A stretch of DNA of 64,000 nucleotides from Limisphaerales bacterium (GCA_037200545.1 JBBCGE010000003.1:6750-70749), one strand, 5' to 3'. Shown: positions 6,663 through 52,990, numbered from the stretch's first letter. Notes: a model not told the origin generated them from the letters alone. A program made the numbers and translations.

Positions 6663-7250
6663 TCAGCTTTTGGCTTTGCGCGCGGCGGCCAGCTCCGCCT
6701 TCGTCGCCGCCTGGAGCTGGTCAAGTTCGTCGCGGAATTCTTCCTTTATCTTCCGTTCCATGCGGTCAATGAACAAGATGCCGTTCAAGTGATCGGTCTC
6801 GTGCTGGATGGCGCGAGCAAGCAGGCCGCCGCAACGGAATGCAATCGGCTTGAAATTTTTGTCCAGCGCCTTCACGTCCACGGATTCCGGCCGCGAAATT
6901 TCCGCGTAAATTTCCGGGAAGCTCAAGCAACCTTCGCCGCCCGCCGCCGACTCATTCACGGGCGTGACTTCAGGATTGATGAGCACCAGCGGCATGATTT
7001 CGTCCACGTCGGCGGGTTTGCCCTTGAGTTCAAGCGTGGAGGGACGGTCTTTGGCGACTCCCCGCACGTCAATCACCGCGAGCTGCAACGCGCGCCCGAT
7101 CTGTTGCGCCGCCAGCCCGACGCCGTGGCTTGCTTCCATCGTCTCGAACATGTCGGCGATAAGCTGCTTTATCTCCGGCGTGATGCTTTCGATGCGCGCG
7201 CCTTTTTGCCGCAATGCCGGATGACCAAATTTGACGATTGGTAAAATCAT
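6663..7250 (-). CDS. def: peptide deformylase
   Basis: All three PDF motifs are present: GVGLAAQQIG, EGCLSFP and QHETDHLNG. Confidence 0.95.
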   Translation of the reverse strand: MILPIVKFGHPALRQKGARIESITPEIKQLIADMFETMEASHGVGLAAQQIGRALQLAVIDVRGVAKDRPSTLELKGKPADVDEIMPLVLINPEVTPVNESAAGGEGCLSFPEIYAEISRPESVDVKALDKNFKPIAFRCGGLLARAIQHETDHLNGILFIDRMERKIKEEFRDELDQLQAATKAELAAARKAKS

Positions 7251-7264
7251 GTGGGAAAATCAAA

Positions 7265-8206
7265 CTAATCCGCCTTCACGCCGAGAATCTGTAAAATCCT
7301 TTCGAGTTCCGCATCGCTGTAAAAGGTGATCTCCACTGCGCCTTTGCCTTGCGCGTAATGCAACTGCACTTTCGTCGCGAACACCTCGCGCAACTTTGAT
7401 TCAACATCGGCGATGTGTGGATCGCCGCCGGGCGCGGACACGGTTTCCGGTTTGGCGGCAGCCACGCGTGAACCGCGCGTTTGCAGCTTGGCGACCAAAC
7501 CTTCCGTCTGGCGCACGTTCAAGCCTTCCTTGATGACACGTTCGGCGGCAAGATTTTGATTTTTCTCATCGGTTAAACCGAGGATCACCTTGGCGTGGCC
7601 GACGGAAATACGGCCTTCGCGCACAAACTTCTGCACCGCCACGGGAAGTTTCAACAGGCGCGTTGCGTTCGCCACGGAGGCACGGCTCTTGCCGACCTTG
7701 AGTGCGATCTCTTCCTGCGTGAGTTGAAATTGTTCCGCCAACTGTGCGTAACCTTGCGCCTCTTCCAGCGCATTCAGATTCTCGCGCTGCAAATTTTCGA
7801 TGAGCGCCAATTCCAGCAGTGAGCGGTCATCAGCTTCGCGCACGATCACCGGCACTTCCGGCAGCGAGATAAGCTGCGAAGCGCGCCAGCGGCGTTCGCC
7901 CGCGATGAGTTCATAGAAGCCGTCGCGTTCGCGCACGATGAGCGGCTGCACAATGCCTTGTTCGCGGATGGAATCGGCCAGTTCGCGCAAAGCTTCGTCA
8001 GAAAATTCCTTGCGCGGTTGCAGGGCCGAGGCGCGGATTTTGTTCAACGGCACGCGCAGGACGCGTTCGCGATCGTCTGGCGCGGGCGGCGGTGGAATAA
8101 TTGCGACCTCCGGTTGAGGGAACGACGGAGCGGGGGCGGATTGCGTGACCGGCGGATTGCCGCCCAACAAAGCGCCCAGACCGCGTCCCAATGCAGGTTT
8201 TGCCAT
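7265..8206 (-). CDS. parB: chromosome partitioning protein ParB/Spo0J
   Basis: The protein starts with MAKPALGRGLGALL at the ATG at 8206 (the track starts at 8251). It has the ParB box LIENLQRENLN and an HTH region. No parA lies upstream. Confidence 0.9.
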   Translation of the reverse strand: MAKPALGRGLGALLGGNPPVTQSAPAPSFPQPEVAIIPPPPAPDDRERVLRVPLNKIRASALQPRKEFSDEALRELADSIREQGIVQPLIVRERDGFYELIAGERRWRASQLISLPEVPVIVREADDRSLLELALIENLQRENLNALEEAQGYAQLAEQFQLTQEEIALKVGKSRASVANATRLLKLPVAVQKFVREGRISVGHAKVILGLTDEKNQNLAAERVIKEGLNVRQTEGLVAKLQTRGSRVAAAKPETVSAPGGDPHIADVESKLREVFATKVQLHYAQGKGAVEITFYSDAELERILQILGVKAD

Positions 8207-8249
8207 GCGAGCAGGGTGTCGCAGGGCAGGGAAGTTGTCAATTTGAAGC
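8148..8249. repeat. direct repeat copy A: parB 5' end plus leader (partner at 14119..14209)
   Basis: A 42-nt perfect core (8168-8209, caaagcgcccagaccgcgtcccaatgcaggttttgccatgcg) is identical to 14139-14180. A second 17-nt identical block (agttgtcaatttgaagc) and weaker similarity lie on both flanks. Confidence 0.85.
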
Positions 8250-8300
8250 ACGACTTCAAGTTGGCGACTCTTAGCGCACGAAAGCGGCGGTCAACCACAC

Positions 8301-8359
8301 GCAGTCCAGACGCTCCGCGCGATTCGATAGCGTTGTTGAGCGCGAAGCGTCTGGACTGC
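8301..8359. repeat. long palindromic hairpin (20-bp arms, 1 mismatch)
   Basis: The arm gcagtccagacgctccgcgc (8301-8320) pairs with gcgcgaagcgtctggactgc (8340-8359), leaving a 19-nt loop. It lies upstream of parB. Confidence 0.6.
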
Positions 8360-8422
8360 GACTGCTTCAGCACCGCTTACGACTATCGCGACCGCCACTC
8401 TGGCCAAACCAGGACACTGCTC

Positions 8423-8560
8423 TTGGCCGTTGCGGCGGAAGAACGCATCCGCCTCCCGCATGGCATCGTCGGTATAATCGAACGACACGAAGAAACCTTT
8501 TTCGCAATCTTCGCGCGTGAAATTTGATAGCGTCAATACTGGTATGAAAATTGCCCTCAA
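8423..8560 (-). pseudogene. possible remnant of a DNA methyltransferase C-terminus
   Basis: Only about 35 residues (NFTREDCEKGFFVSFDYTDDAMREADAFFRRNG) recall the C-terminal region of some N6/N4 methylases. The rest of the 89-aa ORF is featureless. This is weak and recognised from memory only. Confidence 0.2.
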
Positions 8561-8566
8561 GGGCGA

Positions 8567-9400
8567 ATGTCGCGCCGCAAAAAATCAAAAGAAACCGCTA
8601 TTTTCGAAGCCATCGCCGGTTTGGCTGGCCTGTCAATTTTCCTTTGGGTGTTTGTGCCTGCCTTCCGGGAATTGGTCCAAGTGATTCTGCTTTTGGGCGT
8701 CATCACGGTGCTGATTGGCGTTGCCATCCGCCTTTTGATCAAATTTATCGAAGCGAAACCTACGGCCGGTTATAAAACCATCTATGCGGAGACAAGTCCG
8801 ACATCCAATCAGTTCCATGCTCGAGCACCCATCGTGGTAACGGAACCTTACCGGCCCAAACCTGAGCCTTCCATTTCAGAAAAGTTGCGGAAGATTGACT
8901 GGTTCCAATTTGAGAAACTGATGGGATTGATTTATCGGCATCGCGGTTATTCCGTCAAGCGATCAGGCGGTGCAAATCCTGATGGTGGCGTGGATTTGAT
9001 TGTGAGCCGTGACAACGAAAAATTCCTAGTGCAATGCAAGCATTGGCGGAACTGGAACGTGGCCTTGAAGGACATGCGGGAATTTTTAGGCGCGTTGACT
9101 GACCAAAAAGTCGGCAAGGGAGTTTATGTCACATTGCACGGCTACACCCAGGAAGCGCGGCTATTCGCCGATAAACATGGTATCGATCTGCTTGATGAGA
9201 CGGACTTGATTAAAATGCTGAACGATTCGGGACTGGCTTATTCGCGTGAGGTGTCGGAGTTGTTTGCCAGCAAGGAGAAGTGTTGTCCGAAGTGCGGCGA
9301 AAAAATGGTGGTCCGCACGGCGAGGTTGAACGGGAATAAATTCTGGGGCTGCTCCACTTTTCCACGTTGCCGTTACAAAATGGATTACGCAGCGGCGTAG
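8567..9400 (+). CDS. membrane-anchored Mrr-type (PD-(D/E)xK) restriction endonuclease domain protein with C-terminal topoisomerase-type zinc finger
   Basis: It has two N-terminal TM helices. The Mrr_cat-like core reads FEKLMGLIYRHRGYSV...DGGVDLIV...LVQCKHW...KGVYVTLHGYTQEA. The C-terminus reads CPKCGEKMVVRTARLNGNKFWGCSTFPRCRY. Confidence 0.8.
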   Translation: MSRRKKSKETAIFEAIAGLAGLSIFLWVFVPAFRELVQVILLLGVITVLIGVAIRLLIKFIEAKPTAGYKTIYAETSPTSNQFHARAPIVVTEPYRPKPEPSISEKLRKIDWFQFEKLMGLIYRHRGYSVKRSGGANPDGGVDLIVSRDNEKFLVQCKHWRNWNVALKDMREFLGALTDQKVGKGVYVTLHGYTQEARLFADKHGIDLLDETDLIKMLNDSGLAYSREVSELFASKEKCCPKCGEKMVVRTARLNGNKFWGCSTFPRCRYKMDYAAA

Positions 9401-9500
9401 CTGTCGTCTTGGGCTTTGTAGTATTCGGCCTTTAGCCAGATTTATTGAGCCATAGGCTCGACGCTACAAGTTTCGCAGCCGTGGGCTTGAAGACGGCAGC
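9400..9500. repeat. imperfect long palindrome (REP-like) between convergent genes
   Basis: The outer arms are gctgtcgtctt (9400-9410) and aagacggcagc (9490-9500). Inner complementary blocks are tgtag/ctaca and gagcc-ata-ggctc. It probably acts as a bidirectional transcript end. Confidence 0.5.
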
Positions 9501-9584
9501 GCTTAAATTTCTACACCGTTTGACTCTTTAGACATTGCTGCGCCCGGGACGGACGCACTCCGTCGAACAGACTGCCCTCATTTT

Positions 9585-12500
9585 TCAAGGCGAGCGCAGG
9601 CGATAAAAACGTCCGGGATAACCGGATGGATCGCTGAAGGTGGACGTGCCGCTGGCGGAAAGAGTATTGGTGGCGACGGGCAGCCACACGGGATTGATCA
9701 GATTGGTGCAGGCTTGCACCACAACGACCGTGCTGGCGGAACCGGTGAGGTTGAATCCAAAATGTCCGCCGATTACGGCACTGCCTGTGATGGCCAGGGG
9801 AGCCGGCGGTGAAATCATCATCGTCGGGGCGCCGCCGAACGTCGCACCCCAGCCAGTGGTGCCGGCCAAGTAATAGACTGTGGCCGGACTGCCGGGAAAA
9901 ATGCTTCCACCGCTCGACGGGGCGTTCTCTTGAAAATATACGCCCGTCAGGCTGCTGCAGCCGGCAAAGGTATTAAAGCCGACGGCGGTGACGCTGCCGG
10001 GAATGGTGATGTTCCCAAGACTGGAGCAAGCTGCAAAGGTGGAATCCGCGATGCTCGTGAGGCCGTTGGGAAGAGTCACGCTGGTCAAGCTGCCGCAGAG
10101 CGCAAACGCCGCCACACCGATGCTGGTGACACTGTTGGGAATGATCACGCTGGTGATCGTCGTGCAGTTGGCAAACGCCTGGTCGCCGATGGCGGTGACG
10201 GGCACGCCAAAGATCGTGGCGGGAATCACGACCGCACCACCGCTACCGTTGTAGCCGATGATGGTGATGCTGGTATCGTTGATCACCTGACAAAGCAAGT
10301 CGGGGTAGGCCACTGCCGTCGGAGCATAGCCATACGTTGAACCCCAGCCGGTGGTGCCGGCCAGATAATATACCGTGGCTGCCATGGCATTCCCGAAAAC
10401 GCTGCTATCAGCGGACGGCGCATTCCCCAGAAAACAGGCGGCGGTCAGGCTGGAGCAGCCTTGAAAGGCATAAGATCCGATGCTGGTAACGCCGGAGCCA
10501 AAGGTCACGTTCGTCAAACTGGTGCAGTAAGCAAACGCGTCGCCTCGGATAGTGGTGATGTTGGCTGGAATGATCAGGCGCGTCAGATGGTAGCAGTAGT
10601 AAAACGCGGAATCCCCGATGTTGGTGACGCCGCTGCCAAAGATAACGTTTACCAAATGATAACAATCGGTAAACGTGCCGTCCCCGATGGTTCTGACGCT
10701 ATTGGGAATGATCACATCCGTCAGGCTGATGCATAGTTTAAACGCAGAATTGCCAACATTGGTGACGCCGCTGCCGATGGTTGCGCTCTCCAGGCTGGTG
10801 CAGTTGTAAAACGCGCCATCCCCGATGCTGGTGACGCCATTTCCGATGATCACGTTCGTCAGGCTGCTGCAATTAAAAAAAGCATAATTCCCAAGATTGG
10901 TAACGCTGTCGGGAATGGTGATGCTCTTAAGATTAGAGCAGTCATGAAACGCACTCTCGATGATGGTGGTGACACTGCTGGGAATGGTCACATTGGTGAC
11001 ATTGGTGACTTCAAATGCAGAATTTCCGATGGTGTTGACCGGATAGCCAAACATTGTGCTAGGGATCACGACATTGCCGCCCGTACCGATATAGCCAGTG
11101 ATGGTAATCTTGGCATTGTTAACGACTGTGTAAGTAAAATTAGGGTCGGCCCAAGTGGCCGTGGAAACACCGCCAAACGTCGAGCCCCACCCCGTGATGC
11201 CCGACACATAATACACAGTTGCGGGAGTGCCCGAAAAAATGTCCGCGCCAATGGCCGGCTGATTCCCTGAAAAATTGACGGACGTCAGGACCGGGCAGGA
11301 AGCAAATGCATTGTCTCCGATAGTGGTGACGCCATTCCCAATGGTGACACTCATCAATTGGGAACAGCCGGCGAACGCATAATTGTCGATATTGGTGACG
11401 GTGTTGGGAATGATGATGCTTGTCAGGCTCGCACTGTAAAATGCGTAATCCCCGATGCTGATAACCGTGTTGGGAACGGTGTAACTGCCGGTCACACCGG
11501 CCGGAAATTCGACCAGCTTGGTTTGCGCCTTGTTGAGCAGAATCCCGCCCACGCTGCTGTAAGCCGGATTGGAAATATTCACCGCGATATTCGTCAGGCC
11601 GGTGCAATAAGCAAATGCCATATATCCGATGTTGGTGACGCCGGCGGGGATGACCATGCTTCTTAAACTGGAGCAACCCTGAAACCCGCCAGTCCCGATG
11701 CTGGTGACGCTACTAGGCAGGGTCACGTTCGTCAGACTGACGCAGTTGGCAAATGACCCATTGCCGACGGTGCTGAGGCCATTGGGCAGGATCACATTTG
11801 TCAGGCTGAAGCAATTGGCCAGCGCGTTGTCCGCGATCTGGATGACACTGTTGAGCAAGGTGTAACTGCCGGTCCGGCCAGCGGGAAAGAAGAGCAAGGT
11901 GGTTTGTGCCTTGTTGTGCAAAACACCGTTAACGCTGCTATAGGTCGCGTTGGCCGCACTCACCGTCACGTTGGTCAGGCCGGAGCATTCGCTAAACGAA
12001 CCGCGTTCCATGCTGGTGACGCCGCTGCCGATGGTCGCATTCTTCAGCCTCACACAGAATTGAAACGCATTGTCCTCGATGCTGAGGACGGTGTTGGGGA
12101 TGATGACATTCGTCAGGCCGGAACAATAACCAAACGTATAACTCCTGATGATGGTCAGACCGCTGCCAAAGGTCACATTCGTCAACCCAAGGCAGCTATA
12201 AAAGGCATAATCCCCGAGGCTGGCAAGGCTGTTCGGCAGGGTCAATGTTTTCAGCCCGGAGCAGTTATAGAACGCTTGATTCCCGAGGCTGACAACCGTG
12301 TTGCCGAGGGTCACGTTCGTCAAGCCATGGCAATTTTGAAACGCGCCGGACCCGATGCTGGTTATGCTGTCAGGAATGGTCATGCTTGTCAGGTTTGTGC
12401 AGAGGGTAAACACATTGTTCCCGATACTGGTGACGCTATTGGGAATATTGATATTCGCCAGATTGTAGCAATTGTAAAATGCGGTGTCTCCCAGGTTGGT

Positions 12501-14072
12501 GACGCTATTGCCGATGATCACATTAGCCAAACTCCTGCATTCATAAAATGTTTGAGCGCCAAGGCTGCGAACGCCGTTACCGATGCTCACCGTCTTGAGG
12601 TAGGGGCTGCTGTAAAACACACTTTGTCCCATGCTGGTGACACTGTCCGGGATGGTCACATTGGTCAGGACAAAACTAGCGGCAAACGCCAGGTTTTCTA
12701 TCCGGGTGACGTCTAGGCCAAACATCGTGCTGGGAACGACCAGGTCGTCACTGGAACCGTTATAGCCCGTGATGGTGATATTGGTGCCTCCGACGACTGA
12801 ATAATTAAAACCAAGGTAAGCCCAGACAGCGGTCGGGCGTCCCGCAAATTGTGAACTCCAACCCGTCCTAAAAGATACGTAATAGATGGTTGCCGGAGTA
12901 CTGGAAAAAGCACTTGCGCCAACAGATGGGGCGTTCCCTTCAAAATAGACTGCGGTCAAGCTGTTGCAGGAGGCAAACGCAGAATTCCCAATGCTGCTGA
13001 CACTACCGGGAATGATCACGCTTGCCAGCGCATCGCAGTTGTTGAACGCATTATTCCCGATGCTGGTAACGCTGTTGGGGATAATCACATTCGTCAAACT
13101 GGAGCAGGAACTGAACACGGAAACTCCTATGCTGGTGACGCCATCGGGAATGATGAAGCTTTTCAACTGGGCGCAGGAGCTAAAGGCGCTATTACCAATG
13201 CTGGTGACGCCAGCAGGAATGGTTAAACCCGCCAGACTCGCACAGTTGTTAAACGCTTGTGCCCCGATATTAGTGACGTTGTTAGGGATGATCACATTCG
13301 TCAGGCTGGAGCAGGAATTAAATACACCATTGCCAATGCTGGCGACGCCACTGGGAATGATCACGCTTTGCAACTGGGTGCAGGAGTTAAATGCACTGTT
13401 ACCGATGCTGGTGACGCCGGTGCCAATGCTCACGGTCTGCAGGGCGCTGCATGATGAAAAAGCACTGGTTCCGATGCTTGTAACGCCATTGGGAATGGTC
13501 ACGTTGGTGATGCTGCTTTTGGATACGAATGCACTGTTTCCGATGCCGGTGACGTTCAGACCAAACATGGTGTCAGGAATGACCACGGTATTGCTGGAAC
13601 CGGTATAGCCGGTGATGAAGATGCTAATTCCATTGGTGACCGTGTAGTTAAAGTTTGGGTCAGCCCAGACCGCCGTTGGACGACCGCTAAATGCCGGAGT
13701 CCAACCGGTGTTGCCCGCCAGGTAATATATGGTTGCCGGACTGTTTAAAAAAACGGTCGTCCCGATGGACGGTGCATTCCCGTAAAAATAGGCAGACTTC
13801 AAATTGGCACAACCAACAAACGCAGAATCCCCCAGGTTGGTGACACTGTTGGGAACAGTCACATTGGTAATGTCGCTGCCGCCGAAAGCAACAGCCCCGA
13901 TCCGGGTGACCGGATAGCCGTTGGTGCTGGCGGGAATGACCACCGTCAGGTTGGTGCCGGTGTAGAACGTGATGGTGATGGCACCACTGTTGGTTGTGAA
14001 ATTGAACTGCGCCTGTACAAGCTTGGGCAAAGCCAGACATGCCAGCGTTAAAAGCAGATGGTGAATTTTCAT
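9585..14072 (-). CDS. secreted BspA-type leucine-rich repeat (LRR_5) protein, about 1,495 aa
   Basis: The ATG at 14072 is preceded by GGAGGT. The signal peptide is MKIHHLLLTLACLALPKLVQA. Dozens of ~23-aa units follow the pattern (IPNSVTSIGNSAFSSCSSLTNV). Five super-modules are each closed by YF.GNAPS...PATIYY..G.TGW. The protein ends with a W...FYRL tail. Confidence 0.9.
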   Translation of the reverse strand: MKIHHLLLTLACLALPKLVQAQFNFTTNSGAITITFYTGTNLTVVIPASTNGYPVTRIGAVAFGGSDITNVTVPNSVTNLGDSAFVGCANLKSAYFYGNAPSIGTTVFLNSPATIYYLAGNTGWTPAFSGRPTAVWADPNFNYTVTNGISIFITGYTGSSNTVVIPDTMFGLNVTGIGNSAFVSKSSITNVTIPNGVTSIGTSAFSSCSALQTVSIGTGVTSIGNSAFNSCTQLQSVIIPSGVASIGNGVFNSCSSLTNVIIPNNVTNIGAQAFNNCASLAGLTIPAGVTSIGNSAFSSCAQLKSFIIPDGVTSIGVSVFSSCSSLTNVIIPNSVTSIGNNAFNNCDALASVIIPGSVSSIGNSAFASCNSLTAVYFEGNAPSVGASAFSSTPATIYYVSFRTGWSSQFAGRPTAVWAYLGFNYSVVGGTNITITGYNGSSDDLVVPSTMFGLDVTRIENLAFAASFVLTNVTIPDSVTSMGQSVFYSSPYLKTVSIGNGVRSLGAQTFYECRSLANVIIGNSVTNLGDTAFYNCYNLANINIPNSVTSIGNNVFTLCTNLTSMTIPDSITSIGSGAFQNCHGLTNVTLGNTVVSLGNQAFYNCSGLKTLTLPNSLASLGDYAFYSCLGLTNVTFGSGLTIIRSYTFGYCSGLTNVIIPNTVLSIEDNAFQFCVRLKNATIGSGVTSMERGSFSECSGLTNVTVSAANATYSSVNGVLHNKAQTTLLFFPAGRTGSYTLLNSVIQIADNALANCFSLTNVILPNGLSTVGNGSFANCVSLTNVTLPSSVTSIGTGGFQGCSSLRSMVIPAGVTNIGYMAFAYCTGLTNIAVNISNPAYSSVGGILLNKAQTKLVEFPAGVTGSYTVPNTVISIGDYAFYSASLTSIIIPNTVTNIDNYAFAGCSQLMSVTIGNGVTTIGDNAFASCPVLTSVNFSGNQPAIGADIFSGTPATVYYVSGITGWGSTFGGVSTATWADPNFTYTVVNNAKITITGYIGTGGNVVIPSTMFGYPVNTIGNSAFEVTNVTNVTIPSSVTTIIESAFHDCSNLKSITIPDSVTNLGNYAFFNCSSLTNVIIGNGVTSIGDGAFYNCTSLESATIGSGVTNVGNSAFKLCISLTDVIIPNSVRTIGDGTFTDCYHLVNVIFGSGVTNIGDSAFYYCYHLTRLIIPANITTIRGDAFAYCTSLTNVTFGSGVTSIGSYAFQGCSSLTAACFLGNAPSADSSVFGNAMAATVYYLAGTTGWGSTYGYAPTAVAYPDLLCQVINDTSITIIGYNGSGGAVVIPATIFGVPVTAIGDQAFANCTTITSVIIPNSVTSIGVAAFALCGSLTSVTLPNGLTSIADSTFAACSSLGNITIPGSVTAVGFNTFAGCSSLTGVYFQENAPSSGGSIFPGSPATVYYLAGTTGWGATFGGAPTMMISPPAPLAITGSAVIGGHFGFNLTGSASTVVVVQACTNLINPVWLPVATNTLSASGTSTFSDPSGYPGRFYRLRSP

Positions 14073-14118
14073 TACCTCCGGTTCATCATACATATGGTTT
14101 TAATCATGGGAAATTATT

Positions 14119-14209
14119 TGTTCCAAATTGTCGCCACACAAAGCGCCCAGACCGCGTCCCAATGCAGGTTTTGCCATGCGCGCAGGACAGGGAGTTGTCA
14201 ATTTGAAGC
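14119..14209. repeat. direct repeat copy B: displaced parB 5' remnant (encodes MAKPALGRGLGALCGDNLEQIISHD*)
   Basis: See copy A. The minus-strand ATG at 14174-14176 opens a 25-codon remnant that stops at 14100-14102, 27 nt upstream of the LRR gene start. Confidence 0.85.
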
Positions 14210-14264
14210 GGAAAAGTGACTTGGCAAAATCAACAGCCGGTGGTTCAATTATTAAAGACGCCAA

Positions 14265-15488
14265 ATGAAAATCCTGCTGTCAGCCCTGATAGTGTTCTGT
14301 GATCTGTTCACCACGGTGAATCCTGCGTTTGCTCAAACTTGGACGCAGACCAGCGCGCCCATTACCAATTTGCTTTGGCAATCGATTGTTTCATCTGCAG
14401 ATGGAAGTCAAATTACGGCAGTAGCGCAAACTTCTGCCCAACCCCTAACCGGTCCAATTTATAGCTCGTTTGACTCTGGATTAACCTGGACTTCCAACAC
14501 ACTTTCCCCGAAAGCCTGGATTGCGATTGCCTCATCGGCAGACGGCACAAAATTGGTATCATTGGTTCGTAACGGGTTAGGATATGCCTCAACAAATTCA
14601 GGATTTTTTTGGAATAATTCATTGCCCAATGCGAATTGGTATTCAGTCGCTTCGTCGGCGGATGGCACCAAATTGGTAGCAGTGGCAGGAACAGGAAGCA
14701 TTTACACCTCCACGAATTCGGGAAACAACTGGTTCCTTATCTCTGGCACGTCCGGCATGTTCTGGCGCTCGGTTGCTTCCTCAGCGGACGGCAAAAAACT
14801 GGTGGCGGTTAATCGCCGGTCGGGATCCCCTGGCGGTTCAATTTACACTTCTACTGATTCAGGAGATTCATGGATTTCGAATAATGCACCCAATTTAATT
14901 TGGGTTTCCGTGGCGTCTTCTGCTGACGGAAATATTCTGGCGGCGGCACCCGGTGGATTTAATCTAGGCAATGGTCCGATTTGTGTTTCGACAAATTCTG
15001 GTTCAACTTGGATGACCAACAGCTCCCCGATTCTGGCGTGGACGACCATCGCTGCTTCGGCAGATGGAAGAAAATTAATTGCAGCAGCGCTAAAGGCTGA
15101 CGGAAACTCGGTTTTTTCAAATTCGATTTTTACTTCTACTGATTTTGGCGCAACTTGGGTTTCCAATAATGTTCCGGCGCTGAATTGGTCTTCAGTTGCC
15201 GTTTCTGCGGATGGTAACAAATTGGTGGCAGCAACGATTTATGGCGGCATTTGGACTTCGCAAACTACGTCCTCACCGCAATTAAACATTGAGACTTCAT
15301 CCACCAACCTCATGTTCTCTTGGGTCGTTCCTTCAATGAATTTCGTATTGCAACAGAATGCAGACTTAATAATAACGAACTGGGTCACATTAACGAACGA
15401 ACCCGTGTTGAATCTCACCAATCTGAACAACGAGCTGGTTCTTTCTCCATCCAACAGCAGTGGTTTGTTCAGGTTGATTTCGCAATAG
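14265..15488 (+). CDS. secreted BNR/Asp-box beta-propeller protein
   Basis: The signal peptide ends AFAQT. Repeated W.S(I/V)ASSADG.KL(V/I)A blades and Asp-boxes are present (SFDSGLTW, STNSGNNW, STDSGDSW, STNSGSTW, STDFGATW). The protein ends with a W...FRL tail. Confidence 0.85.
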   Translation: MKILLSALIVFCDLFTTVNPAFAQTWTQTSAPITNLLWQSIVSSADGSQITAVAQTSAQPLTGPIYSSFDSGLTWTSNTLSPKAWIAIASSADGTKLVSLVRNGLGYASTNSGFFWNNSLPNANWYSVASSADGTKLVAVAGTGSIYTSTNSGNNWFLISGTSGMFWRSVASSADGKKLVAVNRRSGSPGGSIYTSTDSGDSWISNNAPNLIWVSVASSADGNILAAAPGGFNLGNGPICVSTNSGSTWMTNSSPILAWTTIAASADGRKLIAAALKADGNSVFSNSIFTSTDFGATWVSNNVPALNWSSVAVSADGNKLVAATIYGGIWTSQTTSSPQLNIETSSTNLMFSWVVPSMNFVLQQNADLIITNWVTLTNEPVLNLTNLNNELVLSPSNSSGLFRLISQ

Positions 15489-15593
15489 AACTTTTGCCTT
15501 TGGGGGCTTTAGCTTCAACCGCCAGCTATATTCTTTAATCGAAAATGCTGCTTGGAAAAAATATTGAAAAATGGTTTAACTGGCCATAATCAG

Positions 15594-16775
15594 ATGAAAA
15601 ACCTGCTGATCGATGCCATTCTTTTCTGTGCAATAATCACAGTTGCAAGTTTTGCTTATGCTCAAACTTGGAGCCAGTCAGGCGCTCCTTTGGGTTTAAT
15701 ACTTTCTGGAGCCATGTCTGCCGATGGATCCAAAATAATCGCCGTAGGATCAGGTAACCCAGTTGTTTCATTAGATTCGGGAAAGACTTGGGCAACAATC
15801 GTTGACACTAATCCAGCAATAAATTTTGAATTTCAACATTTTACCCAAATTGCTTCGTCCTCACTTGGGAAAAAATTAATGACTGTTCAAGGTTATGCAC
15901 CATATTCCAATTCAATCTATCTTTCAGAAGATTTTGGGCTAACGTGGACGCCACGCTCGCCGAAACAACTTTGGCGGTTCTGTGCAATTTCGGCTGATGG
16001 GAGCAAACTTTTCGCGGGTGTGAACGGCGGGTTGATTTATAAATCGACCGATTTTGGAACCAATTGGATTCCCACCGGTGCGCCTAGTGCTGGATGGTCG
16101 TGCATCACTCTTTCGGCTGACGGAACTAAGCTTGCAGCAGGCATAGGGCAAACTACAACAGGTAAAATTCACATATCAACCAATTCGGGAATCACATGGA
16201 CAGCGACGAGTGCCCCCAGTAATTTTTGGTATAGCATCGCTTCATCGGCTGACGGAAGTCATCTCGTGGCGACGAGCAGCAGCGGCACTTATGTTTCGAC
16301 GAATTCGGGAAGCAGTTGGATACAATTCAGCTTCCCGGGTTTATCGGCAGCAGTTTCAACCGATGGAAGCAAATTGATCATTGGCAACATAGTGAATAAT
16401 GGGAAGATTTATACTTCGACTAATTTTGGGATGAATTGGGCAACAAATGTTGTTCAAAATATTTCAAATGTGAGTTGGAGAAGTGTGGCCTCTTCCGCAG
16501 ATGGATCTTTATTGCTGGCTGGAACTGACGGTGGGCTTTGGATTTATCGAGCAATATCATCACCGCAATTAAATTTAAAAGCATCCCGCGCCAACCTTGC
16601 TTTTTCTTGGTTGATTCCTTCGACAAACTTCGTATTGCAGCAGAACGTAGATTTGGTTACGACAAATTGGGTGACGTTGACCAACGAACCCACGCTCAAT
16701 CTCACCAACCTGAACAACGAGCTGGTTCTTTCTCCATCCAATAACAGTGGCTTTTTCAGGTTGATTTCGCAATAG
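15594..16775 (+). CDS. secreted BNR/Asp-box beta-propeller protein (paralog of 14265..15488)
   Basis: I prefer the ATG at 15594 (MKNLLIDAILFCAIITVASFAYAQT signal) over the track's TTG at 15552. The blade architecture is the same, and the last ~75 codons are almost identical to the upstream paralog. Confidence 0.85.
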   Translation: MKNLLIDAILFCAIITVASFAYAQTWSQSGAPLGLILSGAMSADGSKIIAVGSGNPVVSLDSGKTWATIVDTNPAINFEFQHFTQIASSSLGKKLMTVQGYAPYSNSIYLSEDFGLTWTPRSPKQLWRFCAISADGSKLFAGVNGGLIYKSTDFGTNWIPTGAPSAGWSCITLSADGTKLAAGIGQTTTGKIHISTNSGITWTATSAPSNFWYSIASSADGSHLVATSSSGTYVSTNSGSSWIQFSFPGLSAAVSTDGSKLIIGNIVNNGKIYTSTNFGMNWATNVVQNISNVSWRSVASSADGSLLLAGTDGGLWIYRAISSPQLNLKASRANLAFSWLIPSTNFVLQQNVDLVTTNWVTLTNEPTLNLTNLNNELVLSPSNNSGFFRLISQ

Positions 16776-16820: not shown

Positions 16821-17246
16821 GTGAGTCATAAAAGCGCCCGCATCGCCGCAATGATCGGATCCTTCCAAGGACATAAACTCGACGCGCATTATCTTGGTTA
16901 TTTCGATTGCTTCAACCGTCAGCTTTTTTACGAGGCGCACGATGTGTTGGAGGATTTATGGCTCATAGATAGACACGGCCCGGATGGGAATTTTTACAAG
17001 GGACTTATCCAGCTGGCCGGCGCGTTTGTGCACCTGCAAAAGAACCGGTTGCGCCCGGCGGCGGCGCTTTTCAAGCTGGCCCAGGCGAACTTTGAAAAAT
17101 ACCCGCCCGTCCATCATCATCTGGATTTAAGGGCGGTTTATGCCTTGGCCCGGAACTGGCTGCTGGAATTGGAGCGGGACGGCTTTGCTGGCAACCCGCT
17201 CACGACGGCGAATGTGCCGCAGTTGACATTGTTGACTCTGAAATAG
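16821..17246 (+). CDS. DUF309 domain protein
   Basis: The protein contains FNRQLFYEAHDVLEDLW...FYKGLIQLAGAFVHLQKNR, which is the typical DUF309 helical pattern. It uses a GTG start. Confidence 0.7.
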   Translation: MSHKSARIAAMIGSFQGHKLDAHYLGYFDCFNRQLFYEAHDVLEDLWLIDRHGPDGNFYKGLIQLAGAFVHLQKNRLRPAAALFKLAQANFEKYPPVHHHLDLRAVYALARNWLLELERDGFAGNPLTTANVPQLTLLTLK

Positions 17247-17256
17247 ACGGTCTCAT

Positions 17257-18171
17257 ATGAAAATGAAACGCATCCTGTTGGCGGGCGGCAGCGGCTTTAT
17301 CGGCCGGGCGCTGGCCAAGGCGCTGATCGTGCGCGGTTACGAAGTGATCATATTGACGCGCACTCCACGTCGGGGTACAGGTTTCCGCGAGGTGGAGTGG
17401 AGCGGCGCGCATATCGGCGAATGGATTCAGCATTTGAATGGAGCGGAAGCGGTGGTGAATCTTACCGGTCGAAATATCAACTGCCCGCACACGAAGGAAA
17501 ATCTTCAGGAAATTTTGGAATCTCGCGTGAATTCCGTCCGTGCCATCGCACAATCTTTTCCGCATGTCAAAAAAGCGCCACGCGTCTGGGTGCAGGCGGG
17601 AGCGGTGGGTTTTTATGGCGACACGGGCGACAGGCTATGCGAGGAGGTTTCGCCGGTCGGCGATGACACGCTGGCGGATATCTGCAAACAATGGGAGGAT
17701 GCTTTTAATTCTGCCGACACTCCCAAGACGCGCCATGTTTTGTTGCGGATCGGTTTTGTGTTGGGTAACGACGGCGGGGCCTTGCCGGTTTTAACCAAGT
17801 TGACCAAATGGTTTCTCGGTGGTGCCGCCGGCAAGGGCAAACAATACATCAGTTGGATTCATATAGCAGATCTGGTGCAGATGTTCATCGCCGCCATCGA
17901 GCGTGATGATTTGACCGGAACATACAATGCGGTCGGCGCCAGCCCGGTGACCAATGCAGAATTCATGAGCGAATTGCGCCATGCCCTCCGTCGTCCCTGG
18001 AGTCCGCCGGTGCCGAAATTTGCCATCCGCATCGGTGCCAAGAAAATGAAAAGCGAACCTTCGCTCGTGCTGGCCAGCCAATGCTGCGCCCCCATCCGTT
18101 TTCTGGAAGCGGGGTTTGAATATGAATTTCCCAAGCTGCGCCCCGCTTTGGAAAATCTTCGTCGCGGATAA
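17257..18171 (+). CDS. TIGR01777/YfcH-type NAD-dependent epimerase family protein (with DUF1731-like C-terminus)
   Basis: The N-terminus carries a Rossmann motif (LLAGGSGFIGRALAKAL). The C-terminus reads RFLEAGFEYEFPKLRPALENL. Confidence 0.85.
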   Translation: MKMKRILLAGGSGFIGRALAKALIVRGYEVIILTRTPRRGTGFREVEWSGAHIGEWIQHLNGAEAVVNLTGRNINCPHTKENLQEILESRVNSVRAIAQSFPHVKKAPRVWVQAGAVGFYGDTGDRLCEEVSPVGDDTLADICKQWEDAFNSADTPKTRHVLLRIGFVLGNDGGALPVLTKLTKWFLGGAAGKGKQYISWIHIADLVQMFIAAIERDDLTGTYNAVGASPVTNAEFMSELRHALRRPWSPPVPKFAIRIGAKKMKSEPSLVLASQCCAPIRFLEAGFEYEFPKLRPALENLRRG

Positions 18172-18386
18172 AGTTTTCACTTCCAACGCATGGGCACGCG
18201 CTGATCCGTTGCGAATTTTCAACACAATCCATCCTGCCGGTTCCATTAATTTGTCTGTCATCCGGATAATTTCAATTGTGAAGAAGTCACCATTGACAGA
18301 ACGTAGCGTCGTCGGTTACAAACGGCGCAAGGTTGTATCTGGGATTTTTTGATTCACAAGTTGTACGTCGGTGGCCGCTGAAACTT

Positions 18387-21300
18387 ATGAAAAAAATCGA
18401 GCCGGTGCATGTTCTCGGACGGATTTTCCTCTTCGCATTTGCCACTTCAAGTTTCCCACTCGAAACGGAAGTCGAGGCTGAAACCGAAACCGATCGCACC
18501 AATCTGGCCGTGATCGTCCGGCACGCTCCGAGCCTGAACGGCGGAACCATCCAAGGCTCGCTCCAGCAGCTTAACGGCGAGAATATGACGATCAACAGCG
18601 GCTTTACCATGACTGGCGATCTGCTTGTGCCCGGCGTGCCGACAGTTGTATCGAATGGAAGGCCCGTTTATTCAGGAACCATTTCCGGAACCGGTGCCGC
18701 GTCGCCCACGGGATACAGGGTTACTTTTAATGGCAATACTTCCCTGCGTTATTTGCGGACGCGGACCACCCCGGTTTCATTGCCCACTGTTTCAGTTCCA
18801 CCTTCGCCCGCCGGCACCCGCACAGTGAACATCAACAGTGCCGGGCAATCTTATGGCGATGCCAGTACATTGCGCAATCTGACTCTTAACGGGAACGTCG
18901 GCATGATCGCGGTGCCGCCTGGCACTTATGGAAGTTTTACGGCAAATGGCGGTTCAGGATTTGTGCTGGGGGTCGTGGGCGGACTTCAGGCAATGAATTA
19001 CAATTTACAAAATCTGAATTTGAACGGCGGTTCCACTTTAAAAATAACTGGTCCTGTGGTGTTGACCCTCGCCAATGGATTCAATGGCAATGGAGCGATG
19101 GGCGCGTCCAATAATCCGGCGTGGTTGCAGCTTCAACTGGCCAATGGAGGATTCACGCTCAATGGAGGCTGCGCGTTCTACGGGCAGGTGTTGGCGCCGA
19201 ATGGAACGGTGATCATAAATGGCAACTCGACGTTGATTGGCACTTTAATCACTGACCAGTTTATATTAAATGGCGGCGGCATGGTGCAGCGGGGCGGGGC
19301 GGTCACACAAACGAATCAACCGCCGGTGGCCGCTCCGCAAAATATCACGCTGCCGGAAAATAGTTTGACCAACATCACCCTGACGGGGTCTGATCAACAA
19401 GGGAGAACGCAGGTGTTTACACTTCTGACACCGCCGGCACACGGAACGTTGAGCGGCGCACCGCCGAATGTAACCTACAAACCGGCGACAAATTATTTCG
19501 GCAGCGACACGTTCACTTTCAAAGTAAATAATGGCATCTTGGATTCGCCACCGGCGACCATTTCACTGAATGTCACAAGAGTCTATTATCCGCCTACGGC
19601 CTTCTCGCAGACTGTCACAAATTATCAAAATACGGCCCTGCCCGTGACATTGACCGGTTCTGATCCGCAGGGATATTCCTTGAATTACTTTGTGATGACA
19701 CAGCCCGGTCATGGAACATTGAGCGGGCCGACGCCCAATCTAATTTACCGGCCCGCCACAAATTATTATGGCAACGATTCCTTTACCTTTCGGGTCAACA
19801 ATGGAATAACCAATTCACCTGCCACCGTCATCAACATCACCAACCAGCCGGTGGACTACCCGCCAATTGTCGTGGCCGGGCCGGATCAATTGATCATTTT
19901 GCCAATCAGCAGTGTCACGCTTAATGGCTCAGTTTATTTTTCTCCTTATCCCAGAACAACAAACACAATTGTTTGGAGCAAGGTGAGTGGTCCTGGTGCC
20001 GTCATTTTCAGCAATCCTTCAAACAGCCTGACATCGGCGACTTTCAGCCAGTCCGGCGTGTACAAGCTTCGCCTGTTTGCCACGGATTCATTTTTAAGCA
20101 ACAGCAACGATCTCACAGTTATTGTGGATGCACCGCCAGTAGTCAACGCAGGACAAGCCTTGACGAATAATTTTCCGGGCACGATCACCTTGACGGGATT
20201 CGCCAGTGACGACGGCTTGCTCACCAATGCACCATTGACCGCGATTTGGAATAAAATCAGCGGGCCGGGCACGGTCACGTTTGGAAACGCAGCAGCAACA
20301 AATAGCGCGGCTATTTTCAGCACTAACGGAATTTATATGCTGCGCCTCACAGTGGACGACGGCATTGCCACCAATCACTCTGATATAACTGTCATCGAAA
20401 ACTTGCCGCCACTCGTCAACGCCGGTTCCACTCAAACAGTGAATTTTGGCGCAACAGTCACCTTGGCCGGGATGATCGCTGACGACGAATTGCCGGATAG
20501 CATTCTTACCAGCGTCTGGAATAAAATTAGCGGGCCGGGCAATGCTGCGTTTGCCAATGCGACTGCAACCAACACCACGGTTATCTTCGATCAATCCGGC
20601 ATCTACGTTTTAAGTCTCACGGCCGATGATGGCTTCTCCACGAACAGCAGCAATGTGACTGTCATCATCAATCAGCCTCCAACCGTTTCTGTCATGGCAG
20701 ATGAATTAATGGTGCAATTGCCATCCACTGCCACTTTGAGCGGTATTGTTTCAGATGACGGTATTCCAAATGGGATATTGAATAATACTTGGAGTCAAGT
20801 CAGCGGACCCGTCACGGCCCTTTTCAGTAATGTCAGCGGGACGAACACGACCGCCAGCTTTAGTCAGCCTGGCATTTATATCTTAAGACTAACGGCAGAC
20901 GATACGATGGCAACTAGCAGCGGCGAAATCTCCGTGAATGTATTGCCAGTGTTAAACGCCAACCACGCGCCACAAGCCTTTGGGCAATCGTTGAACGTAA
21001 ATGAAGGCGAACCCTTGGCGATCACGCTCAATGGAATGGATCCCGACGGCGATGCTTTGACTTTCAACGTGATAATTCCACCCACTCACGGAACGTTGAG
21101 CGGGTCGGCATCAGACCTGATATATCTTCCGGAGACCGGCTATACCGGTGATGATGCATTTGTGTTTGTGGCCAATGATGGGAAAGCTGACTCAGGGCCG
21201 GCAATTGTTTACATTTTGATTAATCCGTTAAACTATGCTCCCATAATTTCTGTTCCAGCAGATCAAACGGTCACTGAAAATCCGATTCTCCAATTTGACA

Positions 21301-34813: not shown

Positions 34814-35902
34814 TTCATTTCGTGAGTTTAAATCTTCACCTTGAACGCTTCGCCTTTTTTCACCGATTGCACGAAGGCGGGCCAGCAGTTGGGGGATCAG
34901 TTCCAGGTCTTTCAGGCTCACCACTTCCACAGGTGAATGCATGTAGCGGTTCGGCAGGCTGATGAGCGCGCTGGCGATGCCGCCACGCGTCCAGAAGATC
35001 GCGTCCGTGTCTGTGCCGCTGGTCGCGGACATCGCTTCGTGTTGCAGCGGGATTTTTTTCTTCGCCGCGACTGCCTCCAATCGCTTCACCACTTCGGGAT
35101 GGTTGCAGCCGCCATGCGTGAGCGGACGGGCCTTTGCCAATCTTGATGTCGCCATGTTGCGCCTTGCTGACGGTGGGATAATCCGTGGCGTGCGTCACGT
35201 CCACGACCAGCGCAATGTCTGGCTTGAGCGAATACGCGATCTGCCGCGCGCCACGAGCAGGCCGACTTCCTCCTGCACGTTTGAGACGGCACAGACTTCG
35301 GCGTTTAATTTGACTTTGGATTCCTTCAACAGCCGCAATGTTTCTGCCACGGCAAAAGTTCCAATGCTATTGTCAAATGCCCGCGCCACGGCGAGGTCGC
35401 CGCGCAAAATATCAAATTCAGCGGCCAGCGTGATCGGGTCGCCGATGCGGACAAGTTTCTGCGCGTCCTTGCGGCTGCTGACGCCGATGTCGATGAACAG
35501 GTCGTGAATCTTCGGCGGCTTGGGTTCGCCATCGTGTTTCATCAGATGCGGTGCAACATTGCCGACCACGCCGTTGACTGCGCCATCGCGCGAATGGATG
35601 ACAACGCGTTGCGCCTTGGTGATGGCTGCATTAACGCCGCCCATTTTGCGGACATAGATGAAACCATTGTCGTCAATGTAATTGACCGCCATTGCGATTT
35701 CGTCGGCGTGGGCGGCGAGCATGATGCGCGGTCCGCCGCCTTTGTTCAGAACGGCCACGCAATTGCCGTAGGTGTCGGAGAAAGTTTCGTCGGTGAACTT
35801 TTTGGCGTAGTTGAGCCAGACTCGTTGTCCGCGGGTTTCGTGGCCGACCGGGCTGGGCGTGTTGACTAGGGTGCGAAGAAAAGCAAGTGAAGCCTCATTC
35901 AT
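34808..35902 (-). CDS. M42 family aminopeptidase (FrvX/CelM-like), with 2-3 frame breaks
   Basis: The sequence reads MNEASLAFLRTLVNTPSPVGHE...MLAAHADEIA...; the fragments 35195..35902, 34860..35204 and 34808..35155 join as ..EEVGLLGARQIAYSLKPDIALVVDVTHATDYP..DIKIGKGP|LTHGGCNHPEVV.. The 3' end is uncertain: an A6/T6 run at 34855-34860 may shift the true stop to 34828. Confidence 0.8.
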
Positions 35903-35959
35903 GGCATCAGGCTAACCAATCGAAAAACAAAAGGCCAGTTTTCGCAAGCGCGACTGACT

Positions 35960-37254: not shown

Positions 37255-37306
37255 GTTCAGTGGTGCCTTAATCAGCCATGTCAAATCAGGTTGACGGAAT
37301 GGAATG

Positions 37307-52433: not shown

Positions 52434-52471
52434 GAAGGTCGGGCCGAGCCGGGTGCATTGTGCGGCCTGCT

Positions 52472-52990
52472 TCAGGACCGCCGACTGGCATTGACCACGA
52501 TGGCCTCGCGCGAGCCGCGCCAGACGGCGAAATCGGCGGTGGAATTTCCGGCATAATCAAAACCGCGCGCGCCGAATTTTTCCGTGAGCGCCCCCAGTTT
52601 GTTCTCACTGCGCAAATTCGTTTTGCCGTCGCTGCCGAGAACTTCATCGAAAAGTCCGATATGGCTGGCGACAGGCAATGCCATTTGGCGATCAGATGCA
52701 GTGGCAAGAATGAGTTTCCTCCCGGCAGATTTTTGCTCGCGAAGAAATATCAGGAATTTTTCATGATAGGGCAGGGTGGCGGGATCAACGGTGACACGCC
52801 GGGCCAGTTGCTTTTTCAGGAAGGCGCGTCCCCGTATCCACCAAAATAAAATTTGAAAAATCCAGAACGGATTTCGGCGGAGCAGTCGCGCCAGATGCTC
52901 CCACATCATGTCCGTTCTGATCAGCGTGCCGTCCAGGTCCACGGCGAGCGGGACTTGATTTGCGGGCAGCACTTCAGGGATTGGCGACAT
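52472..52990 (-). CDS. HAD-superfamily (subfamily IB-like) hydrolase
   Basis: Motif I is LAVDLDGTLIRTD, and LILATASD and a later GNSTAD motif follow. 172 aa. Confidence 0.7.
   Translation of the reverse strand: MSPIPEVLPANQVPLAVDLDGTLIRTDMMWEHLARLLRRNPFWIFQILFWWIRGRAFLKKQLARRVTVDPATLPYHEKFLIFLREQKSAGRKLILATASDRQMALPVASHIGLFDEVLGSDGKTNLRSENKLGALTEKFGARGFDYAGNSTADFAVWRGSREAIVVNASRRS

Follow-up and report, generated by a model that had tools for sequence, protein, structure and literature searches.

A 5.9-kb patchwork insertion in the start of parB in an uncultured verrucomicrobial genome: a probable scar of ordinary recombination at a variable hotspot

Approximately 5.9 kb of patchwork DNA lies within the start of parB in an uncultured verrucomicrobial genome, of which we analysed a 64-kb stretch, referred to here as the window. 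On its far side, this insert is bordered by the original parB start, now dead, and on the side next to parB by a copy that works; the patchwork between them consists of an LRR gene, an Mrr gene, the relic of a methylase gene (107 nt) and hairpins. The insert is no recognisable mobile element, and we read it as a scar that ordinary recombination has probably left at a variable hotspot. The explanation that we prefer, at a probability of about one-half, is that DNA of a related donor was joined to the first codons of parB by homology-facilitated illegitimate recombination (HFIR), also described as additive integration. The comparison set comprised ∼170 related parB loci, and the arrangement is known from the present genome only.

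The intact parB gene (7265–8206, minus strand) encodes a protein of 313 residues in which Pfam identifies the ParB_N, HTH_ParB and ParB_C domains, as expected for a chromosomal ParB/Spo0J protein. Its N-terminus, MAKPALGRGLGALL, includes an LGRGL-type motif and is kept in all relatives, and def follows directly downstream (6663–7250), an order preserved in the ∼170 related loci. The working promoter module (8207–8249) consists of TTGACA followed after 29 nt by the ATG, with no Shine–Dalgarno sequence. TTGAC stands 29 nt ahead of the parB ATG in 110 of 150 loci, and GGAG, GAGG or AGGA within 20 nt upstream of the ATG is found in none of the 150. The fixed promoter–ATG distance and the missing Shine–Dalgarno sequence fit the sequence pattern of a leaderless mRNA, which parB is predicted to produce. 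From −43 to +77, a span of 120 nt, the working copy is identical to that of a close relative, L168, while third codon positions elsewhere are ∼0.70 identical. By this comparison, the promoter/5′ block is the best-conserved stretch in the locality, and if diverged genomes were to undergo RecA-type pairing, this is where it would most probably occur.

A repeat search of the window returned two pairs of direct repeats, one of 60 nt and 93% identity (8156–8215 and 14127–14186) and one of 20 nt and 95% identity (8230–8249 and 14190–14209). Their spacings, 5971 and 5960 nt, differ, so the stretch separating the blocks must be 11 nt shorter in one copy than in the other. Within these pairs are a perfect 42-mer (8168–8209 and 14139–14180) and a perfect 17-mer (8233–8249 and 14193–14209), each present exactly twice in the 64 kb against expectations from shuffled sequence of 0.00 and 0.01, respectively. 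The 42-mer is the conserved parB start itself and is single-copy in every related locus except the present one. A reading of the window made earlier from the sequence alone (the sequence-only reading) had described this direct duplication and its two perfect blocks, and both are borne out, although the limits that it gave, 8148–8249 and 14119–14209, need trimming because similarity begins at 8156 and, in the distal copy, at 14127. Its estimate of ∼13 codons and a leader of ∼45 nt holds for the coding part, in which codons 1–13 match perfectly and codons 14–17 at 9 of 12 bases; the leader is longer in the working copy (43 nt) than in the distal one (32 nt). The upstream edge of the repeat (8249 and 14209) coincides with the edge of the promoter block conserved across the clade.

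The working copy (8156–8249, minus strand) thus comprises the 43-nt promoter module and parB codons 1–17. Its distal counterpart (14127–14209, minus strand) comprises a damaged 32-nt promoter (14178–14209) and codons 1–17 (14127–14177), and its reading frame is dead, as had been recognised: translation from 14177 to 14100 on the minus strand gives 25 codons, MAKPALGRGLGALCGDNLEQIISHD, and then a stop. Relative both to the working copy and to L168, the distal copy has 7 substitutions and 2 deletions. One deletion, of 10 nt between CTGCG repeats, takes out a −10-like block, and the total loss of 10–11 nt includes the most conserved −10-like block. Homology to parB ends abruptly at 14126/14127, the 9 matches in 12 bases falling near the joint, and it is here that the relic would have been joined illegitimately to the insert.

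That the distal copy is the original follows from its surroundings. The 55 nt beyond it (14210–14264) are the ancestral BNR–parB intergenic flank, still joined to the relic; they align with the intergenic region of L168, L010, L003 and L004, in which ...GATTTTGCCAAGTNAC(A)TTTTC abuts GCTTCAAATTGACA. Beyond the flank stand the ancestral left-hand neighbours, all on the plus strand and assigned by Pfam: BNR1 (14265–15488), BNR2 (15552–16775), DUF309 (16821–17246) and Epimerase (17257–18171). The ancestral order, seen in most of the ∼170 related loci, is Epimerase–DUF309–(BNR) and then parB–def, with the left-hand group divergent from parB. Judged by ParB, the closest relatives are L169 (95% identity), L168 and L171 (94% each), with L003 and L004 at 88–89%. 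The search for an empty site that the sequence-only reading had called for gave a clear answer. In L168, Epimerase, DUF309 and BNR are followed by an uninterrupted promoter, parB and def, and its positions 9797–10051 are colinear with 14370–14127 of the window at 82.7% identity, spanning the 5′ end of BNR1, the intergenic flank and the relic; in L171 likewise, BNR adjoins an uninterrupted parB. Given these uninterrupted loci and the ancestral order, the 5.9 kb must have been inserted, and what remains of the first parB start is the distal copy. None of the other ∼170 related loci has a second parB start or the same insert or junction, and an LRR gene or a close Mrr homologue at the insert position was found in none of them except L162, which has the Mrr gene.

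The site is prone to change. Across 88 loci, DUF309 and parB are between 85 and 6150 nt apart (less than 300 nt in 41), as against 8615 nt here, and the cargo varies; from this variability we conclude that the gap is a hotspot. Integration and defence hotspots lie between conserved core genes, and their cargo is exchanged by homologous recombination in the flanks. The present gap resembles them in its conserved flanks, DUF309/Epimerase and parB/def, in being empty in about half of the relatives and filled with varied cargo in the others, and in that this cargo includes restriction-type genes. It differs in that the commonest cargo is secreted BNR-repeat proteins rather than defence genes and in that the right-hand border is a promoter block rather than a gene body. 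Promoter relics occur in three of the ∼170 loci, the window, L003 and L004, each beside a BNR gene with the same flank. In L003 and L004, the relic is followed by different cargo, a rhodanese gene and filler, respectively, and then by a full promoter. Their relics end at about −8 and about −20, whereas the relic of the window extends to about +41 to +51; the crossover site is therefore not fixed. Varied junction positions of this kind are what illegitimate joins would be expected to leave.

The part of the insert nearest to parB has the clearest history. The Mrr gene (8567–9400, plus strand) is predicted to encode a membrane-anchored endonuclease, as first supposed, with Mrr_cat and zinc-ribbon domains identified by Pfam and two hydrophobic helices at the N-terminus. 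With its flanks, it forms a cassette (8513–9476) that is 89.5% identical in DNA sequence to positions 9947–10910 of L162, and in both genomes the cassette lies divergently upstream of parB; in L162 the Mrr gene is directly upstream of the parB promoter, with neither LRR gene nor duplication. Between the window and L162, third-codon identity is 0.85 for Mrr and 0.59–0.68 for def, parB, DUF309 and Epimerase, and from this excess over the flanking genes we conclude that the cassette has moved between lineages. The two genomes share no similarity in the DNA separating Mrr from the promoter (263 nt in the window, 160 nt in L162), and at the same position L050 has an Mrr_cat gene of 29% identity only.

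Between the Mrr cassette and the working promoter lies the 107-nt relic (8410–8516, minus strand; ∼35 codons) of an N6/N4 DNA-methylase-type gene, of which it represents the C-terminal, Mrr_cat-like domain. The 78 library proteins that it matches do so at residues 16–50 of its open reading frame only; among ten of these scanned, seven match Mrr_cat and one also N6_N4_Mtase. Its DNA is 89.7% identical to positions 9900–10005 of L167, downstream of a fragmented N6_N4_Mtase gene, and the methylase remnant that had been put forward as possible is therefore real. In L169, only 17 nt separate the parB promoter from the end of an intact gene of this methylase–REase-type family, and the relic agrees with that gene in family, place and orientation, though at no more than ∼58% protein identity. 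The window thus combines a left half of L168 type with a right half of L162/L169 type.

Most of the insert is the LRR gene (9585–14072, minus strand), which encodes a secreted BspA-type protein of 1495 residues with a signal-peptide-like N-terminus, an LRR_5 match in Pfam at E = 9e-274 and a 69-nt repeat periodicity in the gene. It has no close homologue, the best matches being 29–41% identical. Its GC3 of 0.67 is like that of host genes; on composition, then, the gene looks native, and the evidence for an origin in a related genome comes from the Mrr cassette. The ATG at 14072 is 27 nt past the stop of the relic, as had been stated. The AT-rich region upstream (14073–14126, minus strand), whose left edge is the putative illegitimate junction, has no homologue in any related locus; it contains a promoter-like site, TTCCCA-16 nt-TATGAT (14112–14085), and the GGAGGT (14079–14074) that precedes the ATG. 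An earlier suggestion was that the duplicated leader might now drive the LRR gene. We think this improbable: the relic has lost 10–11 nt, including the −10-like block, and so probably does not drive the gene, which has a promoter-like site and a Shine–Dalgarno sequence of its own.

The sequence of events that we favour would begin from an ancestor in which BNR1 was divergent from parB, ∼55 nt away, with the promoter–ATG module at its fixed spacing. The donor would have been a related bacterium with a different order upstream of parB, ending in Mrr, methylase, promoter and parB. On one side, recombination would have passed through the extremely conserved promoter/5′ block, and on the other an illegitimate join would have formed inside the resident parB, placing ∼5.9 kb after codon 13–17. 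The old promoter and codons 1–17 would thereby have been left beside BNR1, the relic then decaying with loss of the −10-like block, while the intact second promoter and 5′ end at the parB-proximal edge would have kept parB working. Under this mechanism, the replacement 5′ end is the homologous anchor and no adaptation of a mobile element. The insertion could also have taken place in several steps. The parB-side border lies in the 120-nt block identical to L168, where donor and recipient versions are indistinguishable; the proximal copy is of L168 type with no positive donor mark, and parB beyond +77 is no closer to L162. A donor with the order LRR–Mrr–methylase–promoter–parB was not found among the related loci. 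The native composition of the LRR gene and its want of close homologues, the unrelated Mrr–promoter spacers of the window and L162 and the low protein identity of the methylase relic to the L169 gene likewise count against this scheme.

HFIR or additive integration has been proposed for the sequential displacement of T6SS effector–immunity modules and for Rhs orphan arrays, and both accounts describe displacement that leaves relics (PMC3240628; PMC5361080); for HFIR, PMC5361080 cites de Vries & Wackernagel 2002 and Prudhomme et al. 2002. As in those systems, a conserved stretch bordering a variable region would serve as the anchor, a recombinase gene would be unnecessary, and DNA would be added rather than swapped, so that the old conserved end is displaced and left as a relic. 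Unlike in the T6SS and Rhs cases, the anchor here would be the promoter and first codons of an essential-type housekeeping gene and the relic is a dead gene start; both the donor and the illegitimate joint are deduced from the sequence arrangement.

The strongest competitor, which we regard as possible although distinctly less probable, is an internal duplication of the parB start. It could have come about through unequal exchange between sister strands, a template switch at microhomology during replication or staggered-break repair, with DNA of the same genome filling the gap between the copies either then or afterwards. Both copies are indeed of one sequence type, the proximal equal to L168 and the relic differing by decay-like changes only, and the GC3 of the LRR gene suits host DNA. 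In addition, the 10-mer AACCGGAGGT (14074–14083), which could be the microhomology of a template switch, has one other copy in the window, at 8106–8115; the two sites lie 40 and 43 nt past the repeat, and neither the rest of the window nor 2 Mb of loci contains a further one (shuffle p ∼0.0005–0.005). An internal duplication leaves unexplained, however, why a close homologue of the L162 Mrr cassette should stand beside the new promoter copy, as it does beside the L162 parB promoter, and why a relic of the methylase family should occupy the site of the intact L169 gene; moreover, no second copy of any insert segment is present in the window.

A site-specific integrative element in the 5′ end of parB, with the two copies as attL and attR and an integrase lost or acting in trans, was the interpretation offered by the sequence-only reading, and we consider it unlikely. 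Its model is the dusA islands, in which foreign DNA occupies the 5′ end of a conserved gene between direct repeats of that end, and the insert-side copy, with promoter-like sequence, keeps the gene intact (PMC4482086). In all of this the present locus is alike, its distal copy being truncated after codon 17, and the insert holds restriction–modification debris typical of island cargo. The dusA islands, though, always have a tyrosine integrase at the edge, their att repeats of 21–28 bp occupy the same fixed position throughout hundreds of genomes, and they excise as circles (PMC4482086). Here no integrase stands at the edge, and a repeat of 94 nt, far longer than those att sites, is found in one genome only. 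As had already been noted, integrase and transposase are missing: Pfam detected no integrase, transposase, resolvase or other recombinase domain in the insert genes or in 39 other long open reading frames of the window, a subset of those of at least 150 residues. The variable relic ends in L003 and L004 leave no fixed crossover core, the upstream repeat edge is simply that of the clade-wide block, insert and junction do not recur in the comparison set, and L162 has the Mrr cassette in the same place without repeats or LRR gene. What is supported of that interpretation is the insertion and the restoration of an intact parB by the proximal 5′ end; the attL/attR element is not.

We give still less credence to an old promoter duplication common to L003 and L004, with cargo swapped repeatedly and the insert lost through the repeats in L168 and L171. 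It would account for the restriction of relics to the window, L003 and L004, all beside BNR with the same flank, and for a weak likeness in the flank before the working promoter between the window and L004 (ACTTGAAGTCGT against ACTTCAAAGGTC). Against this, ParB places L168, L169 and L171 nearer to the window than L003 and L004, and in at least two of the three the locus is uninterrupted; several independent, precise losses would be needed; and the three relics end at different points. It is marginally more doubtful again that the parB promoter/5′ block is a dedicated landing pad for block-carrying cassettes inserted by an unrecognised recombination system. Were this so, the L003 rhodanese, the L004 filler and the present Mrr/methylase/LRR segment would be cassettes, each with its own copy of the block, in an integron-like arrangement with a gene start as attachment site and a recombination system possibly acting in trans. 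Finally, an assembly chimera of two co-occurring related genomes joined at the conserved parB start is very improbable, since, although the same assembly (GCA_037975565.1) holds a second related genome, L162, with the shared block, and several window genes look frameshifted, indicating imperfect sequence quality, such a join would give a normal-looking parB and not a relic whose promoter lacks 10 nt and which runs on into unique AT-rich DNA and an LRR gene, the relic keeps its ancestral BNR flank within 32 nt, and the contig is 485 kb long.

Two further features of the locus deserve comment. The sequence-only reading had found the lack of an adjacent parA unusual; in those of the ∼170 related loci whose contig reaches upstream of parB, there is no parA but DUF309, BNR or other genes on the opposite strand, and its absence is therefore a trait of the clade and no consequence of the insertion. 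The canonical parS, TGTTNCACGTGAAACA, is absent from the window at up to 2 mismatches, a consensus from which the clade's own parS may differ.

The hairpins of the insert are of two kinds. Directly upstream of the working parB promoter is a long imperfect inverted repeat (8279–8381) with two 42-nt arms that are 81% complementary and a predicted fold of −78.4 kcal/mol (z-score −5.5); it has no homologue in the related loci. The spacer between the Mrr and LRR genes (9401–9584) contains two short hairpin repeats of dispersed type, at ∼9439–9469 and ∼9532–9562. These have matches of 24–31 nt and 90–92% identity in the intergenic DNA of relatives, at three sites in L043 and in L036 and L001, a recurrence that lends slight substance to the REP-like palindrome originally described.

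The promoter region and first codons of parB (7265–8206, minus strand, with def downstream), spanning 8156–8249, are present again in direct orientation at 14127–14209. The two copies align in a 60-nt block that is 93% identical and a 20-nt block that is 95% identical, with one copy 11 nt shorter in between, and perfect blocks of 42 nt and 17 nt each occur twice in the 64 kb, where the expectation is approximately zero. The duplicated parB 5′ end described in the sequence-only reading is thereby confirmed. The distal copy translates as MAKPALGRGLGALCGDNLEQIISHD followed by a stop codon, 27 nt beyond which the LRR gene starts. Relative to both the working copy and the related locus L168, it carries seven substitutions and has lost a single nucleotide at one place and 10 nt at another; the 10-nt deletion lies between two CTGCG repeats and takes out the best-conserved −10-like block.

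The comparison drew on 79 loci from species representatives and 80 from metagenomes, supplemented by several look-ups for the nearest ParB proteins, and revealed a conserved order, Epimerase(−) DUF309(−) [BNR(−)] | parB(+) def(+). The closest long relative, L168 (ParB 94%), has an uninterrupted Epimerase-DUF309-BNR|promoter-parB-def arrangement, as does L171 (ParB 94%), so that the empty site sought by the earlier reading exists. Moreover, L168 9797–10051 is colinear with window 14370–14127, through the 5′ end of BNR1 (the BNR-repeat gene adjoining the distal copy), the intergenic flank and the distal copy itself. Because BNR lies directly against promoter-parB in these two relatives and L168 is colinear with the distal copy and its flank, we conclude that the 5.9 kb between the copies is an insertion, as had been proposed, and that the distal copy is what remains of the ancestral parB start, still at its own site. 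No second parB start was found in the collected loci, and none of them apart from L162 carries an LRR gene or a close Mrr homologue in that position; L050 has a Mrr_cat gene there that is only 29% identical. The lack of an adjacent parA, which had been considered unusual, is a trait of the clade, and a search of the window for canonical parS found nothing.

In the parB direction, the insert consists of an AT-rich LRR leader (14073–14126), the gene for a secreted 1495-aa BspA-type LRR protein (9585–14072), a spacer containing small hairpin repeats, a gene in divergent orientation for a membrane-anchored Mrr_cat and zinc-ribbon protein (8567–9400), a relic of an endonuclease domain of the methylase-associated kind (107 nt; 8410–8516) and, between this relic and the working parB promoter, a long hairpin (8279–8381). 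In the closest relative of all, L169 (ParB 95%; a 1.67-kb contig), an intact gene of methylase-REase type stops 17 nt short of the parB promoter, where the window has the relic of the same family. The hairpin, an inverted repeat with 42-nt arms, a 21-bp perfect stem, a free energy of −78 kcal/mol and a z-score of −5.5, has no further copies in the window or the related loci; it may act as a transcription insulator or be what is left of a small element. Searches with the LRR protein gave repeat-level matches alone (29–41% identity) and no close homologue, and so did not trace the origin of its gene, and a distant blastn search of 8148–9600 against plasmids gave no match. The suggestion that the duplicated leader now drives the LRR gene is not supported. 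Such drive is unlikely because the 10-nt deletion removes the −10-like block from the relic, and the gene has a promoter-like site of its own, TTCCCA-16 nt-TATGAT (a consensus match only), together with GGAGGT. GC content was rejected as a marker of the insert, the low-GC stretch being the BNR genes, which lie outside the repeats and are low in GC in all relatives. In the window (14265–16775) and in L003, L010 and L015, which differ in overall GC, GC3 of the BNR genes beside parB is 0.37–0.47 against 0.63–0.80 in their neighbours, with the BNR gene of L006 (0.53) as the exception.

The repeated segment contains a highly conserved promoter module. The sequence GCTTCAAATTGACAACTTCCCTGCCCTGCGACACTCTGCGCGC-ATG is strongly conserved throughout the clade, CTGCGACA is nearly invariant upstream of the parB ATG (window 8207–8249; L001–L161), and 110 of 150 loci have TTGAC exactly 29 nt ahead of the ATG. 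The fixed TTGAC–ATG spacing, together with the absence of a Shine–Dalgarno-like motif from the last 20 nt before the ATG (0/150 loci), suggests that a fixed module in this clade may give rise to a leaderless parB mRNA. Window 8130–8249 and L168 9958–10077 are identical throughout their 120 nt (parB −43 to +77), whereas identity at third codon positions elsewhere is only about 0.70, which argues for either nucleotide-level constraint on the first ~25 parB codons or recent homogenisation. Set against the same third-position scale, the ~8% divergence of the relic suggests, as a rough estimate, that the event took place about a quarter to half of the way back to the split between the window and L168. 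The upstream boundary of the repeat (8249/14209) is the upstream edge of the module, and homology with L162 and all other relatives ends at the same base; the boundary is no recombination core.

The distance between DUF309 and parB ranges from 85 to 6150 nt in 88 loci, the gap being effectively empty in 41 of them, and reaches 8615 nt in the window. Its cargo includes BNR proteins, small ORF families, the Mrr_cat gene of L050 and a rhodanese in L003, which marks the gap as a gene-exchange hotspot in Limisphaerales-like Verrucomicrobia. The spacing between parB and def also varies, from ~10 nt to ~2.7 kb (L017, L019, L023, L029, L033–L037, L043, L046, L170 and others), with a 23S_rRNA_IVP-type gene in L170, which hints that parB may be bordered on its def side by another small hotspot for insertions.

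L162 is arranged def-parB-promoter | 160 nt | Mrr | 65 nt | DUF309-Epimerase, and LRR, BNR and the duplication are all absent from it. Its Mrr DNA is 89.5% identical to that of the window, and since third-position identity is 0.85 in this gene against 0.59–0.68 in def, parB, DUF309 and Epimerase, the Mrr cassette has a more recent, lateral history than the flanking genes. Overall, the window resembles a composite of a left half of L168 type and a right half of L162/L169 type. L162 (contig JBBCBH010001778.1, GCA_037975565.1) belongs to a second related genome in the assembly to which the analysis assigned the window. Its parB and def share ~82% DNA identity with the window genome, so that this 'MAG' (GCA_037975565.1) mixes no fewer than two related organisms. 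L162 also has many short gene calls, suggesting frameshift errors.

We infer from these comparisons that the insert arose by recombination between versions of this locus that differed in arrangement. Homologous pairing would have been anchored in the conserved promoter/5′ block, whereas the incoming DNA would have been joined illegitimately at its far end, within the resident parB, as in homology-facilitated illegitimate recombination, also called additive integration (PMC3240628; PMC5361080). A donor arrangement with the LRR gene was not found among the loci examined, and donor and resident origins of the proximal block are indistinguishable by sequence. Close relatives are about equidistant on both sides, with no switch of nearest relative between def/parB and DUF309/Epimerase of the kind that would mark a recombination tract. 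The likeness of the proximal promoter flank to L019, L048 and L069, examined as a sign of another lineage, amounts to only ~13–25 extra bases and is not convincing.

Template switching that duplicated the parB start internally is a real alternative. In the window, the 10-mer AACCGGAGGT occurs only at 8106–8115 and 14074–14083 (minus strand), 40 and 43 nt past the repeat end in the two copies (shuffle p ~0.0005–0.005), and is absent from 2 Mb of related loci; it encodes QPEV of ParB in one copy, lies in the LRR Shine–Dalgarno region in the other, and could be the microhomology used in such a switch. The att-site reading proposed earlier, in which a mobile element integrated into the 5′ end of parB, is not supported. 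The insert differs from the dusA islands (PMC4482086), which bear integrases and occupy a gene 5′ end, in that no recombinase domain was found in it or in the tested long ORFs of the window and no junction recurs; an element of that kind is further disfavoured because the insert is a patchwork and its Mrr part is present at this site in another genome that has no repeats. Neither an Rfam search of 7000–15500 (E up to 1) nor a scan of the entire window for tRNAs gave a hit, and a tRNA- or RNA-type attachment site was rejected. A chimeric assembly is unlikely, as the structure of the relic speaks against it.

Only two other duplications were found among ~170 loci. In L003 (ParB 88%), a promoter copy beside BNR ends at about −8 and is followed by a rhodanese gene and then the full promoter and parB; in L004 (89%; 9566–9828), only 23 nt of the promoter remain next to BNR, and 256 nt of filler rich in hairpins separate this stub from the full promoter. 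The relics of the window, L003 and L004 have the same BNR-side flank and a different end base each. The small hairpin repeats of the L004 filler also occur in intergenic DNA of many related loci. L003 contains interleaved repeats (6901–6998, 9214–9270, 9282–9379 and 9826–9889): two promoter copies, 92% identical, flank the rhodanese gene, and 98 nt at the 3′ end of the rhodanese gene recur at 90% identity in a paralogous 216-aa gene adjoining DUF309. The latter repeat was rejected as a second scar because it belongs to a paralogous gene sharing that domain.

The window locus is a recombination scar of an ordinary sort, though well documented, in a hotspot that varies between relatives, and reveals neither a new kind of mobile element nor a new function. 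It offers a worked example of how recombination between diverged genomes can be anchored in a short and extremely conserved promoter/5′ block that borders a variable region, leaving a datable relic of a housekeeping gene start.

Elsewhere in the window, several genes look split or truncated (35195–37284, 51934–52707, 54339–56146 and 56430–56891). Peptidase_M48 appears as two overlapping ORFs, a sodium:solute symporter as two ORFs, and LNT also looks split or truncated; Peptidase_M42 matches the first 174 of 292 profile positions only, and galactokinase is cut at 153 aa. These are either assembly indel errors or pseudogenes. A 3360-aa ORF at 18333–28415 encodes an M36 metallopeptidase of the fungalysin type together with IgGFc-binding, PKD, cadherin-like and Ig-like domains, and its homologue in L168 is cut short beside a rve-type transposase.
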